Shown here piece after piece: positions 8,331-62,883 of a stretch of 64,000 nucleotides of DNA (positions are counted from its first letter, which is position 1; the number at the start of each line of letters is the position of its first letter). This DNA comes from an uncultured bacterium (lineage in GTDB: Bacteria; Verrucomicrobiota; Kiritimatiellia; RFP12; CAIWXQ01), in contig CAIWXQ010000001.1 of assembly GCA_903916675.1 (NCBI GenBank), positions 217-64,216 on the forward strand. The letters are read 5' to 3'. The notes under the pieces were generated by a model. It was not told the origin of the DNA, made no database searches, and was given only the letters and a program-made list of their open reading frames with translations. The translations under genes were made by a program, and so were the position numbers.

Positions 8331-8447
8331 GGACACAGAGGGCACAGAGATGAATATGAGAACACAGAGGAATAACGGCTCGCGGCCGGTTGGCTGCGGC
8401 AGCCATTCCCCTCAGTGTCCTCATTCTTCCTCTGTGTGCTCTGTGTC
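8331..8447. repeat. Long imperfect palindrome (GGACACAGAG...CTCTGTGTC) in the leuA leader
   Basis: The purine-rich left arm is built from CACAGAG-like units. The central GC mini-hairpin is GGCTGCGGCAGCC. The right arm is the pyrimidine-rich complement, CCTCTGTGTGCTCTGTGTC. Confidence 0.8.
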
Positions 8448-8512
8448 TAACGGCACCGTATGATTTTCCCGGCAATGATGCCGGGGGATGCGAGACAGAA
8501 CGAGGAACGACC

Positions 8513-10036
8513 ATGAGTACCGCGAAACAGAAGCTCTACATCTTCGATACCACGTTGCGCGACGGGGAGCAGTCCCCGGGCTGCAGCATGAACCTCAAGG
8601 AAAAGCTGCTGGTCGCGGAGCAGCTCGAGCTCCTGAACGTGGACATAATCGAGGCCGGGTTCGCCGCCTCCTCGCCGGGCGACTTCGAGTCAGTCCGCGA
8701 GGTCGCGCGTAGGACCAAAAAAGCCGCGGTGGCCACGCTCTGCCGCTGCCTCGCCAAGGACATCGATGTCGGCTGGCAGGCGGTGCGCGAGGCCAAGCGG
8801 CCGTGCCTGCACCTCTTCCTCGCCACGTCGCCGCTGCATATGCAGTACAAGCTCAAAATGTCGCCCGAAGCTGTGTACGAGCAGGCGGTTGCCATGGTGA
8901 CCCATGCCCGCAAGCTCTGCCCGGAGGTGGAGTTCTCGTGCGAGGACGCCTCACGCAGCGAGCCGGACTTCCTCCACCGCGTGGTCGAGGGGGTCATCCG
9001 CGCTGGCGCGAAGGTCGTGAATCTACCGGACACCGTCGGGTATGCCATGCCGGAGCAGTATGCGGCCATGATCCGCAGCGTGCTGGCCAGAGTCCCCAAT
9101 GCCGGCGAGGCGATCCTCTCCGTGCACTGCCACAACGATCTCGGCCTGGCCGTGGCCAACTCACTCGCCGCCGTGCAGGCTGGCGCGCGGCAGGTGGAGT
9201 GTGCGCTCAACGGCATCGGCGAGCGCGCGGGCAACGCCGCGCTCGAGGAGATCGTCATGGCGCTGCGCACGCGGCCGGACTGTTTTGCCGTGGCAACGGA
9301 GGTGGACGCCACCCGCCTCTACAACGCCAGTCGCTGCGTGATCTCCGCCACGGGATCGCGCATCCAGGCCAACAAGGCGATCGTCGGTGAGAACGCTTTT
9401 GCCCACGAGGCGGGAATTCACCAGCACGGCGTCATGGCGCACGCCGGCACCTACGAGATCATGACGCCCGAGTCGATCGGCGTGCCGCGCAACCGCATGG
9501 TGCTCGGCAAGCACTCGGGGCGGCATGCCTTCGAGAGCCGCCTGCAGGACCTCGGCTTCCACTGCGAGGCCGCCCGGATCCAGGAGCTCTTTGCGGAGTT
9601 CAAGGTGCTGGCGGACCGTAAAAAGACCGTGTCAGACGCGGACATCGAGGCGCTCGCCCGCGGCAGCGCGGGCCGGGACGAGGAGCACGTGAAGCTCGAG
9701 CGCTTCGTCGTGCAGTCCGGCAACGACATTCCGGCCACCTGCACGATCGCCCTGCAGAAGGAAGGCCAGACCGCGCGCCACTCGGCCACAGGCGACGGCC
9801 CCATCGACGCGGCCTTCAAGGCTATCGAGGGAATCCTCGGCTTCACTCTCGCGCTCGAGGCCTTTACGCTCTCGTCCGTGACCGGCGGCGAGGATGCTCA
9901 GGGCGAGGCCTCCGTAAAGGTGCGCCGCGGGGAGCGCATCTACAATGGGCACGGACTCTCCACCGACGTGGTCGAGGCTAGCATCAAGGCCTACCTGTCG
10001 GCAGTGAATGCGCTGTTAAGCGATGAGAAGAAGTGA
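8513..10036 (+). CDS. leuA: 2-isopropylmalate synthase
   Basis: Start MSTAKQKLYIFDTTLRDGEQSPG (ATG 8513, GAGGAA 5 nt upstream) inside track ORF 8390..10036. It has HCHNDLGLAVANSLAAV, and the C-terminal LeuA allosteric domain is present. Confidence 0.93.
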   Translation: MSTAKQKLYIFDTTLRDGEQSPGCSMNLKEKLLVAEQLELLNVDIIEAGFAASSPGDFESVREVARRTKKAAVATLCRCLAKDIDVGWQAVREAKRPCLHLFLATSPLHMQYKLKMSPEAVYEQAVAMVTHARKLCPEVEFSCEDASRSEPDFLHRVVEGVIRAGAKVVNLPDTVGYAMPEQYAAMIRSVLARVPNAGEAILSVHCHNDLGLAVANSLAAVQAGARQVECALNGIGERAGNAALEEIVMALRTRPDCFAVATEVDATRLYNASRCVISATGSRIQANKAIVGENAFAHEAGIHQHGVMAHAGTYEIMTPESIGVPRNRMVLGKHSGRHAFESRLQDLGFHCEAARIQELFAEFKVLADRKKTVSDADIEALARGSAGRDEEHVKLERFVVQSGNDIPATCTIALQKEGQTARHSATGDGPIDAAFKAIEGILGFTLALEAFTLSSVTGGEDAQGEASVKVRRGERIYNGHGLSTDVVEASIKAYLSAVNALLSDEKK

Positions 10037-10055
10037 GAATGCGAGAGTACAGCTC

Positions 10056-10111
10056 GGTAGGGCGCGCAGTTCCTTGCGCGCCGCGGCGGCCAGGGGACTG
10101 GCCGCCCTACC
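10056..10111 (+). repeat. 56-nt hairpin repeat, copy 1 (GGTAGGGCG...CGCCCTACC family)
   Basis: GGTAGGGCGCGCAGTTCCTTGCGCGCCGCGGCGGCCAGGGGACTGGCCGCCCTACC. It is 54/56 identical to 24218-24273 and lies 19 nt after the leuA stop. Confidence 0.9.
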
Positions 10112-61243: not shown

Positions 61244-61249
61244 TTCCGG

Positions 61250-62743
61250 ATGGTGCCGTCGTTCTACCTCTATTTTGCGCTCGCCCTGCCGGCGCTTCTG
61301 GCGCTGGCAACGCTGCTGCGCTTGTCGCCTGCTGCGCAACTGCGCCTGCTGGCGTTCGGTACCGCCGGCGTGGCGCTGGGCGCGCTGCCGGCCGTGATCC
61401 GGGTCTGGGCGGGCTGCGACGAGATCGTCGCGGCGCAGGGGTGGTTGCGGCTGGATGCGCTGGGTGCGCTGCACGTGCTGCTCCTGCTGGCTGTGTTCGT
61501 GCCGGCCGCAGTGTACGCCCGCCGCTACTTCGGGGTCGAGATCGCAGCCGGCGAGTTTTCGGCCGGTGCGGCGCGGCGGTTTGCGGCGCTCTGGTTCGGG
61601 GCGCTGGCCATGATGCTGCTCGTGCTGCTGGCCAACAACCTCGGCATCATGTGGGTCGGCGTGGAGGCCACCACACTGCTGACCGCGTTCCTGATCTGCA
61701 CGCACCGGACGGCCGGCTCGCTCGAGGCCATGTGGAAATACCTGCTGATGTGCTCGGTCGGCGTGGCCGTGGCCTTCATGGGGATCCTGCTGATCGCAGC
61801 CGCCACGCGCCACACCGGCATGCCCGCGACCTCGGCGCTGCTCTGGACGAACCTCATGGCAACGCAGGGTAAGCTCGATCCGGCGCTGGTCAAGGCGGGG
61901 TTCCTCTTCCTGGTCGTGGGGTTCGGCACCAAGGCTGGCCTAGCACCCATGCACAACTGGCTGCCGGACGCGCACAGCCAGGCGCCCTCGCCGGTGTCGG
62001 CCGTCTTCTCGGGGTGCCTGCTGAACAGCGCGCTCTACTGTATCCTGCGCTGCCTGCCGCTGGCCGAGGGGGTCAGCGGCAACACGGGGTGGGCGCGGGG
62101 CGTGCTGGTGGCGCTGGGGCTGCTCTCCATGCTCGTGGCGGCCGGGCTCCTGCTGGCGCAGCGCGACCTCAAGCGCCTGCTGGCATACTCCAGCGTGGAG
62201 CACATCGGCGTCATGGCGCTGGGCGTGGGATTGGGAGGGCTGGGCGCGTTCGCCGCGATGCTGCACATGCTGGGGCACGCGCTGGCCAAGCCGCTCGGGT
62301 TCTTCTGCGCGGGAACCATCGGCCAGGCCTATGGCACGCACGACCTGCGGCGCATCGGCGGCGTGGTGCGGCAGGCGCCACCCTGGGGGATCGGACTGGT
62401 GCTGTCGCTGCTGGCGCTGATCGGCATGGCGCCGGGCGTGCTCTTCCTCAGCGAGTTGCTGGTGCTCAAGGCGGCCGTGGAGCAGCAGGCCTGGTGGACT
62501 GTCGGTCTCTACCTGGCCGCGCTGGCCGTGGCGTTCATTGCTGTGCTGCGCCGCGCCATCGCGCTCGGCTGGGATTCGTCCGCGCCGCCGCCGGAACGGC
62601 CGTCCGCCGCTGCGGCCGGCGCCGACGCCTGGTTGCTGACGATCTTGCCGCTGGTGTTGCTGTCCGTGCTGGGCCTGCTGCTGCCGATGGGTCTGGCGGA
62701 ACTGTTGCTGCGCGCCGCCATGATCGTGGGAGGCGCGCTGTGA
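61250..62743 (+). CDS. HyfF-like (NuoN/M antiporter-type) membrane subunit
   Basis: 497-aa ORF with FGTKAGLAPMHNWLPDAHSQAPSPVSAVFSG and LKRLLAYSSVEHIG. Confidence 0.88.
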   Translation: MVPSFYLYFALALPALLALATLLRLSPAAQLRLLAFGTAGVALGALPAVIRVWAGCDEIVAAQGWLRLDALGALHVLLLLAVFVPAAVYARRYFGVEIAAGEFSAGAARRFAALWFGALAMMLLVLLANNLGIMWVGVEATTLLTAFLICTHRTAGSLEAMWKYLLMCSVGVAVAFMGILLIAAATRHTGMPATSALLWTNLMATQGKLDPALVKAGFLFLVVGFGTKAGLAPMHNWLPDAHSQAPSPVSAVFSGCLLNSALYCILRCLPLAEGVSGNTGWARGVLVALGLLSMLVAAGLLLAQRDLKRLLAYSSVEHIGVMALGVGLGGLGAFAAMLHMLGHALAKPLGFFCAGTIGQAYGTHDLRRIGGVVRQAPPWGIGLVLSLLALIGMAPGVLFLSELLVLKAAVEQQAWWTVGLYLAALAVAFIAVLRRAIALGWDSSAPPPERPSAAAAGADAWLLTILPLVLLSVLGLLLPMGLAELLLRAAMIVGGAL

Positions 62744-62753
62744 ACGGGAATAC

Positions 62754-62883
62754 GGACACGAAGCCAATGCGGACACGAAGAGAGAAAAGAGGCTGCGAAG
62801 AAAGGCGAAGGGTCGGTTGTGCGCGCCAAGCGCGCGGAAACCCCCTTCGGATTTCTTCTTCGTCCTTCCTCTCCTTCGTGTCC
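62754..62883. repeat. Long imperfect palindrome (GGACACGAAG...CTTCGTGTCC) between hyfF-like and large-subunit genes
   Basis: The purine-rich arm is GGACACGAAGAGAGAAAAGAGGCTGCGAAGAAAGGCGAAGGG. The central mini-hairpin is GCGCGC-CAA-GCGCGC. The pyrimidine-rich arm is CCCTTCGGATTTCTTCTTCGTCCTTCCTCTCCTTCGTGTCC. An extra GGACACGAAG direct copy sits at 62754. Confidence 0.85.

Follow-up and report, generated by a model that had tools for sequence, protein, structure and literature searches.

The long stem-loops in the intergenic DNA of a 64-kb window of contig CAIWXQ010000001.1 (the window being the whole stretch of DNA that was analysed) are probably inverted dimers of short dispersed modules, and together they probably represent a mixed set of non-autonomous selfish palindromic elements in a bacterium of the Planctomycetota-Verrucomicrobiota-Chlamydiota (PVC) superphylum. 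Multi-copy families, presence or absence at orthologous gene junctions, nesting and differences in unit number were directly observed, as was an association of repetitive extragenic palindromic (REP) sequences with a REP-associated tyrosine transposase (RAYT) on another contig. Two of the elements are REP doublets, which are already catalogued; hairpins with arms of tandem 6-7-base units were poorly described before, and such tandem-oligomer palindromes are a thinly documented variant that has possibly spread across phyla. An earlier sequence-only reading of the window had proposed either a system of RNA-level punctuation or a family of non-autonomous mobile hairpins. The multiple copies, the absence of elements from the junctions of relatives, the nested and solo arms, the RAYT-linked REP and an IS110 element inserted in a REP all favour the second proposal.

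The window has a G+C content of 65%, and contigs identical to it are present in humic-lake metagenomes; among contigs encoding these proteins, the longest measures 229.6 kb. As the closest named RecA proteins (82-86% identity) come from metagenome-assembled genomes (MAGs) of Kiritimatiellia, the source was regarded as a PVC-superphylum bacterium. Together with 10 kb outside the window (contig L253; contigs used for comparison carry L numbers), 74 kb of the source genome was read. Four population contigs (L001-L004) showed 99.98% identity to the window with zero indels, and were therefore of no use for covariation or polymorphism.

Long stem-loops in the window

Every stem-loop named in the sequence-only reading was recovered at its position and folds as described there. 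The RNAfold energies of ten elements, from 8329 to 62754 (elements are named by their first base, Table 1), gave z-scores of -4.3 to -11.3 relative to 200 dinucleotide-preserving shuffles each, far past chance. A 160-nt RNAfold scan of the window yielded 13 segments with z < -5 against 0.25 in the null, and these 13 are the listed elements and one ordinary terminator. In the window, an ungapped inverted-repeat finder returned 6 matches scoring at least 16, compared with 0.1 for each shuffled one. At a score of at least 22, long inverted repeats numbered 7.8 per 100 kb in the window, 6.3 in close relatives and 0.7 in unrelated high-GC genomes, an approximately 10-fold difference between the first and the last. 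The unrelated control (856 kb) consisted of loci matching the 15-nt core of family B (see below), an unspecific pattern with at least 120 matches, mostly by chance, in high-GC genomes, and it contains two genuine family B carriers, L009 and L013. The possibility that such palindromes are no commoner than composition predicts is contradicted for the window by both the shuffles and the density excess. Rfam 15 covariance models run over the whole window produced no match at the gathering score and none at E <= 1.

The sequence-only reading had described at least ten stem-loops with tandem-oligomer arms. The stem-loops hold, whereas tandem arms were seen in about six only (8329, 25935, 31668, 53311, 60421 and 62754), with 10056, 24217, 14873 and 16026 being either REP doublets or GC-rich palindromes of the ordinary type. 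The GC mini-hairpins that it saw in several loops are present in 8329, 53311 and 62754. Its count of three or more families recurring within 64 kb was also correct: 10056 and 24217 are 96% identical, the TCGGNN core of family B matches 14 times against 0.39 expected, and the GTCGAC flanks of the cassette after alaS (see below) are 94% identical. Two features had escaped it, a REP-like unit of 27 nt present at 14812 and 40546 and a solo TCGGNN-type arm (52059-52091).

Most elements begin 1-40 nt past a stop codon, with 9-50 nt remaining to the next start codon. The earlier description of all elements as lying at gene 3' ends or inside operons is right for most of them and wrong for 8329, which lies in the divergent gap between an AraC gene and leuA, just upstream of leuA. 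In gaps that lie at gene 3' ends or separate co-oriented genes, folding energies were -0.47 to -0.59 kcal/nt, against -0.25 to -0.35 kcal/nt in divergent promoter-bearing gaps, which are mostly free of elements.

GTAG REP doublets and a neighbouring IS110 element

The elements 10056 and 24217 (24218-24274) constitute family A. Its unit, GTAG-GGCGCGCA-GTCCCT-TGCGCGCC, is followed by two bases and an inverted variant ending with CCCTAC. The unit thus consists of a 5' GTAG, an 8-bp GC stem and a 6-nt loop, that is, the unpaired tag and short GC-rich stem-loop of a REP, and in both window copies two units face each other head to head across a 2-bp spacer, the form of REP doublets forming hairpins (REPINs). 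A 26-nt degenerate pattern of family A was found at no fewer than 120 metagenome loci (at least 120, from peat, soil, lakes and gut). Among the matches listed, the variable dinucleotides of the stem were complementary in 134 of 135 instances, with four pair types and a chance expectation of 25%, and 101 of the 135 had an inverted, CTAC-ended partner within 130 nt. The window holds two family A copies in 64 kb, and other GTAG-type units occur in L253.

On contig L132, family A units flank an open reading frame (ORF) of 155 aa that matched NCBIfam NF047646 (REP_Tyr_transpos) with E 1.3e-20 and 73.7 bits, slightly below the 80-bit cutoff, and PDB 4ER8, the E. coli TnpArep structure, with E 8.7e-6. 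By analogy with known RAYTs, the doublets are presumably copied by such an enzyme, a Y1 HUH protein, acting on single-stranded hairpin DNA. GTAG REPs have been described in the PVC superphylum, with high enrichment in Opitutus terrae (Di Nocera et al. 2013, PMC3733652), where dimers are spaced by only 1-2 bp and the families are numbered GTAG-17 to GTAG-20. Thus, 10056 and 24217 are GTAG-tagged REP doublets of the REPIN type. Membership of a catalogued family of REPs or of miniature inverted-repeat transposable elements (MITEs) had been named beforehand as the outcome that would tell against a new system, and for this part of the set it is what was found.

A second RAYT-like ORF (L139:226-883; NF047646, E 1e-20) is flanked by a 26-nt unique inverted repeat, not by GTAG REPs, an arrangement resembling the tyrosine transposases associated with terminal inverted repeats of Di Nocera et al. 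(PMC3733652).

A gene for an IS110-family transposase (DEDD_Tnp_IS110 and Transposase_20; L253:7153-8118) lies about 1.2-2.7 kb beyond the window start. A 41-nt direct repeat whose end reads ...CAGGTAG bounds the IS110 element, and the right-hand copy of this repeat continues directly into GGACGCC...CCCTAC. Therefore, the IS110 element sits at the GTAG of a REP, as IS110 elements are known to do (bioRxiv 10.1101/2025.01.17.633520; PMC11187229). Just inside the element is a third 16026-type arm (91-93% identical). Also in L253 are 3-4 copies, 79-98% identical, of a composite repeat some 240 nt long (10536-10865, 13210-13437 and 15124-15431). It joins modules of the GCGGACACGAAG type, the GGACACTGAGGGCACAGAG type and the CAAGCGAACCGCAA type to a terminal GTAG REP, GTAGGGACGCC...GGCGTCCCTA, and CACAGAG-type modules are among its contents.

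Tandem-arm hairpins as dispersed families

Family B, defined by the core TCGGTRTCGGGGTCG, comprises 25935, 31668, the solo arm 52059 and the copy nested at 60488. The right arm of 31668 is that of 25935 with one additional 6-nt unit, TAGCGA. Modules in which the order of the variable dinucleotides is kept were found in L009 (a MAG labelled Desulfatiglandaceae, 50% GC), L242 and L113, and two copies with the same order in L013 (a MAG labelled Desulfosudis oleivorans, 57% GC).

Several types seen once in the window likewise proved to be dispersed. A homologue of the TAGGCTG element lies at L177:11434-11590 and L232 carries a solo arm, the 14873 type gave 23-nt arm matches in L215 and L199, CACAGAG modules related to 8329 occur 3-4 times in L253 and also in L242, and modules related to 62754 occur in L253 and L232. 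All the apparent singleton types (CACAGAG, TAGGCTG, GA-rich and 16026) thus have copies in L253 or other contigs, and a lack of family structure, the other outcome that had been named as refuting, is contradicted by multi-copy families in the window, in L253 and in other contigs.

Tandem-arm modules are 30-45 nt long, consist of degenerate tandem 6-10-mers and, like REPs, appear paired in inverted dimers, as solo arms, nested or clustered. Heptamers prevail among the unit types seen (10 of about 15). No self-complementarity of single tandem-oligomer arms was found on reading the sequences. Of the features expected of a MITE, inverted repeats (arms of 23-45 nt) and dispersal (copies at unlinked loci) are present. 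No empty site was close enough in sequence to fix the exact ends of the elements.

A parent insertion sequence was sought among inverted repeats with interiors of 300-2500 nt, and none encloses a transposase between tandem-arm ends; apart from a DUF559 gene, this search turned up only Y1/RAYT genes whose ends are of other kinds. A regular expression for HUH transposases had no match over 4045 ORFs, and a search for family B in phage and plasmid sequences returned nothing relevant. The DUF559 gene, encoding a 141-aa protein like Vsr-type endonucleases, is bracketed by 47-nt GC-rich inverted repeats in two contigs (L140:2151-2699 and L213:9160-9708) and is another small cargo-bearing palindromic unit.

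In tandem-arm modules, slippage adds or removes whole units and has clearly reshaped them. A stem of tandem units would also tolerate shifts in register, a possible reason for the persistence of this architecture. That sites past stop codons and between co-transcribed genes tolerate about 60-170 extra bases would account for the build-up of elements there.

Orthologous junctions in relatives

The sequence-only reading had suggested comparative genomics as a check, and elements of the window were indeed absent at orthologous junctions of L127, L128 and L249. The thl-hbd-pct-adh operon is kept in relatives; its junctions measure 15, 11 and 14 nt in L127 (pct 75% identical), and the hbd-pct junction is 11 nt in L128. 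In L125 (81%), the thl-hbd and hbd-pct slots are occupied by unrelated TTTWCGA and GAAAGCT heptamer hairpins. In L249, whose hyf copy has only 67-77% nucleotide identity to the window, the hyfC-hyfE junction is 18 nt and hyfF and hyfG overlap, while the window has 166-nt gaps containing 60421 and 62754. The tight or overlapping orthologous junctions indicate that the window hairpins are recent insertions.

The recA-alaS spacer contains a Phd/PIN toxin-antitoxin module in L250, L251 and L254-L256 (RecA 91-97% identical) and none in the window. At the site of the window's GTCATTG hairpin, L252 carries a solo (GTCATTR)3 array with a PIN gene after it; the L249 spacer contains a 570-nt decayed toxin-antitoxin remnant (11036-11696) surrounded by inverted heptamer arrays. 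As the module is absent from the window and decayed in L249, the spacer is a hot spot of insertion and turnover. Direct heptamer arrays also lie right before the alaS start codon (L249:11642-11682, L254:12295-12330, L250:12170-12190 and L251:11830-11855), with units that vary among close relatives (CCTACCA x5, TTCCACC x3, CCACCYW).

The cassette after alaS

The spacing between alaS and the flavodoxin gene is 24-62 nt in relatives and 817 nt in the window, where an ORF is inserted between two repeats. The sequence-only reading had taken these repeats for complementary arms enclosing a whole gene. They are 36-bp direct repeats; as GTCGAC is palindromic, they are self-complementary as well, and each alone forms a weak hairpin (z -2.1 and -2.4). 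The inserted ORF (254 aa) encodes a four-helix-bundle protein of the 23S rRNA intervening sequence (IVS) family (PF05635/TIGR02436) with a TIGR04258 suffix and a topoisomerase-type Zn ribbon. It is found at this site in this lineage only, and its protein cluster has a single member sequence. The earlier view of the cassette as a cargo-bearing relative of the hairpins receives some support from the repeat-flanked insertion and from the L249 arrays around a toxin-antitoxin remnant, and its GTCGAC array may derive from a simple TCGACG...CGTCGA hairpin.

The alanyl-tRNA synthetase encoded upstream (53409-55217) is of a short form, 602 aa against 595-597 aa in relatives, that ends past the editing domain and has no C-Ala domain. 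Truncation of alaS by the neighbouring insertion was considered and rejected, as short AlaRS is the native form in all relatives; the window's protein matched NF002436 end to end with 936 bits.

Features of the window

Table 1. Stem-loops, related repeats and the cassette in the window, followed by further unit types with the same architecture in related contigs
Feature	Position or contig	Location or remarks	z-score
CACAGAG-type-arm hairpin	8329..8450	divergent gap upstream of leuA; GC mini-hairpin in loop	-6.9
GTAG-tagged REP doublet	10056..10111	leuA-cimA; head-to-head, 2-bp spacer	-4.3
27-nt REP-like unit CCCTGGGAGCGCGGGCGTCCCGCCCGC	14812..14838	second copy 40546-40572; third in L253	
GC-rich palindrome, 26-bp arms	14873..14954	between convergent rluD-like and oppF-like genes	-8.1
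Palindrome, 40-bp arms	16026..16153	oppC-oppF; mini-hairpins in each arm	-11.3
GTAG-tagged REP doublet	24217..24274	hbd-pct	-6.1
Family B hairpin, TCGGNN hexamer arms	25935..26016	between pct and Fe-ADH gene	-9.1
Family B hairpin	31668..31803	between ABC-F and radical-SAM genes; 60-nt loop	-6.8
Solo family B arm (CCGANN strand)	52059..52091	upstream of recA	
(GTCATTG)4 / (CAATGAC)4 hairpin	53311..53413	occupies recA-alaS gap	-10.5
Left 36-bp GTCGAC-N4 repeat	55218..55253	direct repeat of 55998-56033, 94% identity	
Inserted four-helix-bundle ORF	55270..56034	+ strand; TIGR02436 and TIGR04258 suffix domain, C-terminal Zn ribbon	
Right 36-bp GTCGAC-N4 direct repeat	55998..56033	holds stop codon of inserted ORF	
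TAGGCTG heptamer-arm hairpin	60421..60590	hyfC-hyfE; family-B-like hairpin 60488-60540 nested in loop	-6.7
GA-rich / GCGGACACGAAG-type hairpin	62754..62883	hyfF-hyfG; GC mini-hairpin in loop	-6.2
Unit TTTWCGA, GAAAGCT	L125		
Unit ACAGGATNN	L161, L179		
Unit AGTGAGC, GTTCTTS	L177		
Unit AACATCS	L184, L208		
Unit AATCTT	L222, L238, L113		
Unit ATTGCGG	L238		
Unit AGGTGGY	L249		
Unit CGTCCT	L254-L256		

Apart from the hairpins, an autotransporter gene (35546-38767) has 9-nt GGC-rich tandem repeats in its N-terminal part (35740-36440), a Gly-rich passenger domain; these tandem repeats are coding and unrelated to the hairpins. Three ORFs of 325, 269 and 578 aa (in 11868-13699 and 45605-47341) matched nothing in Pfam or NCBIfam above threshold; the longest, of 578 aa, gave only a weak YacP-like NYN match.

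Alternative explanations

Several observations weigh against reading the stem-loops as selfish elements. The bias to gene 3' ends and operon junctions, with promoter gaps spared, is equally expected of a selected RNA function. For the tandem-arm modules, neither a transposase nor any other enzyme able to copy them was found, the 74 kb read of the source genome revealed no RAYT, and no transposition event was seen among the four population contigs. On reading the sequences, no conserved end tag (GTAG or CGTC) was found at the outer ends of the tandem-arm hairpins, and inspection by eye of the boundaries of family B copies and other elements revealed no consistent short direct repeat as a target-site duplication. 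The cross-phylum spread of family B is based on the taxonomic labels of MAGs. The change of units upstream of alaS among close relatives fits a local slippage origin for some elements, and so does the simple ...TCGACG..CGTCGA... hairpin found in relatives in place of the window's (GTCGAC-N4)3.

The tandem-oligomer palindromes could constitute a distinct and widespread class of mobile hairpins, apart from REPs and MITEs, occurring in PVC bacteria, Desulfobacterota and Geobacter. Given that neither a tag nor a target duplication nor a parent transposase is evident, such hairpins would move between loci and between phyla by an undescribed mechanism; their arms, tolerant of register shifts, would lengthen and shorten by slippage, and they would be able to bracket cargo (toxin-antitoxin, four-helix-bundle). 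We give this wider proposal some, though limited, credence.

That the hairpins are host-selected RNA punctuation, stabilising the upstream mRNA, directing RNase III processing or attenuating read-through, seems unlikely. Their position between a stop codon and the next start codon and the lower folding energies of 3'-end and operon gaps suit this proposal, and REPs and bacterial interspersed mosaic elements (BIMEs) are established as protecting upstream mRNA (summarised in PMC3733652). However, the same operons are tight or overlapping in L127, L128 and L249, and where the slots are filled in a relative, L125, they hold unrelated sequence, so that the system postulated by the sequence-only reading is not conserved at orthologous junctions. 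Nor is there a strand asymmetry, as the two strands fold with equal energy and the transcribed one shows no enrichment in G-U pairs. One element, 8329, precedes a gene, and arms that occur solo are unable to fold. A test of orientation, comparing the G/C or purine content of the arms with the gene strand, was dropped, since a palindrome is identical on both strands and the composition of its arms gives no orientation information. None of the observations points to selection acting on the RNA. Once an element is transcribed, an influence on mRNA decay would, by analogy with REPs, be a reasonable secondary consequence; an action as a barrier to 3' exonucleases or as an RNase III site, as for REPs and BIMEs, would then be a side effect and not the raison d'être of the elements.

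Less probable again is an origin on the spot with no mobility, in which slippage would expand 6-7-nt units in a 3' hairpin and intrastrand template switching would copy them to the other arm. Family B copies do differ by a whole unit, as 25935 and 31668 do, and the majority of heptamers fits the heptanucleotide excess of prokaryotes (PMC4679880). The units upstream of alaS vary in close relatives (CAATGAC, CCTACCA, TTCCACC and CCACCCT), and the simple hairpin in place of the GTCGAC array points in the same direction. Evidence against this origin comes, however, from modules with an identical dinucleotide order at unlinked loci and on contigs differing in GC content and taxon label, and from the existence of nested and solo copies. 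The imperfect units of 53311, moreover, are not mirrored between its arms, and thus give no sign of ongoing arm correction.

It is very improbable that the paired arrays are double-stranded DNA sites for a nucleoid protein or global regulator such as IHF or HU. The authors of PMC2700814 suggested IHF or HU for similar paired sites of Geobacter metallireducens, but more than 10 unrelated unit sequences occur in one lineage, too many for one or a few regulators, promoter regions are avoided, and a 6-7-bp unit spacing would be off helical phasing.

The elements can hardly be the intrinsic terminators of the organism, stable hairpins directly past stop codons though they are. No T-run follows the hairpin at any listed element, whereas canonical terminators with a GC hairpin and a T-run are found in the window after the autotransporter gene (38812-38850), rpsA (about 40640-40690, minus strand) and cimA (11741-11790), and show that the organism uses ordinary terminators; furthermore, hyfC-hyfE, hyfF-hyfG and oppC-oppF belong to obligate multi-subunit operons in which termination would be harmful.

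Integron attC sites were set aside without a formal test, as the elements are flanked by core genes and a GTTRRRY core is not evident.

Significance and comparison with known systems

If the stem-loops are selfish elements, young selfish palindromes make up about 1.8% of the window and, on a rough tally, about a fifth of its intergenic DNA; they lie inside core operons (leuA-cimA, recA-alaS, hyf and opp-like), and such elements turn over fast between close relatives in an uncultured PVC lineage. This would be a caution against taking every strong intercistronic hairpin as a regulatory device. The tandem-oligomer modules would then behave like REPs without the hallmarks of REPs, and identifying what copies them could add a mechanism for non-autonomous bacterial repeats. 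In practical terms, the elements break metagenome assemblies, serve as strain markers, and could alter the stability of operon mRNA once transcribed.

Among known systems, the GTAG REP/REPIN-RAYT system is the closest and includes 10056 and 24217, which are multi-copy and extragenic, show compensatory stem variants, and have relatives that flank a RAYT homologue on L132; the other elements work in a similar way. Like REPs, the tandem-arm modules are found at gene 3' ends singly, in inverted dimers and in clusters; they differ from REPs in that they carry no GTAG tag, that the arm is built of 6-10-nt tandem units, that a single arm is not self-palindromic, and that no cognate RAYT was found.

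Bacterial MITEs (Chunjie of Geobacter uraniireducens, Correia/NEMIS) are likewise short, non-coding and multi-copy, with inverted ends and stable hairpins. Chunjie-type MITEs can sit inside operons without breaking them. The hairpins of the window differ in having tandem-oligomer arms instead of a unique terminal inverted repeat, and in that neither a target duplication was recognised nor a parent insertion sequence with the same ends found.

The cassette after alaS resembles the 23S rRNA IVS with an S23p ORF of Coxiella (PMC4990558) in its protein family, in the self-complementary repeats at both sides and in being a lineage-specific insertion. As an element of the IVS type it does not qualify, since its flanks are direct repeats and it lies in the alaS-flavodoxin spacer, not in an rRNA gene; its protein also has an extra suffix domain and a Zn ribbon.

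The heptanucleotide repeats of cyanobacteria and Beggiatoaceae, which include the short tandemly repeated repetitive (STRR) sequences and TAACTGA, are reported to comprise only one inverted case among 170 repeat sets (PMC4679880). They share with the arrays described here the intergenic heptamer units and, in Beggiatoaceae, a placement close to start codons like that of the alaS-upstream arrays of relatives, but they are direct arrays, whereas those of the window are mostly inverted pairs. The GTCATTG unit of the window is a rotation of TTGGTCA, which we take to be STRR2.

Paired sites in Geobacter metallireducens are the look-alikes of the tandem-arm hairpins and come next in closeness after the GTAG REPs. 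According to Aklujkar et al. 2009 (PMC2700814), there are 24, 21 and 8 pairs of sites on opposite strands, each consisting of 3-5 tandem 7-9-mers, in classes 1-3 with the units GTTGCTYN, TCTCCGTSY and MTYCTGA, respectively, and one pair lies between proB and proA. The statement of the sequence-only reading that no described repeat class matches thus fails for 10056 and 24217 and is partly upheld for the tandem-arm hairpins, for which PMC2700814 offers look-alikes with no mechanism. Judged from their description, the Geobacter sites and the window hairpins have in common opposite-strand tandem arrays, variable spacing, an intergenic location that includes operon interiors, and tens of copies; they differ in the sequences of the units, and that paper treats the Geobacter pairs as regulator-binding sites without examining mobility.

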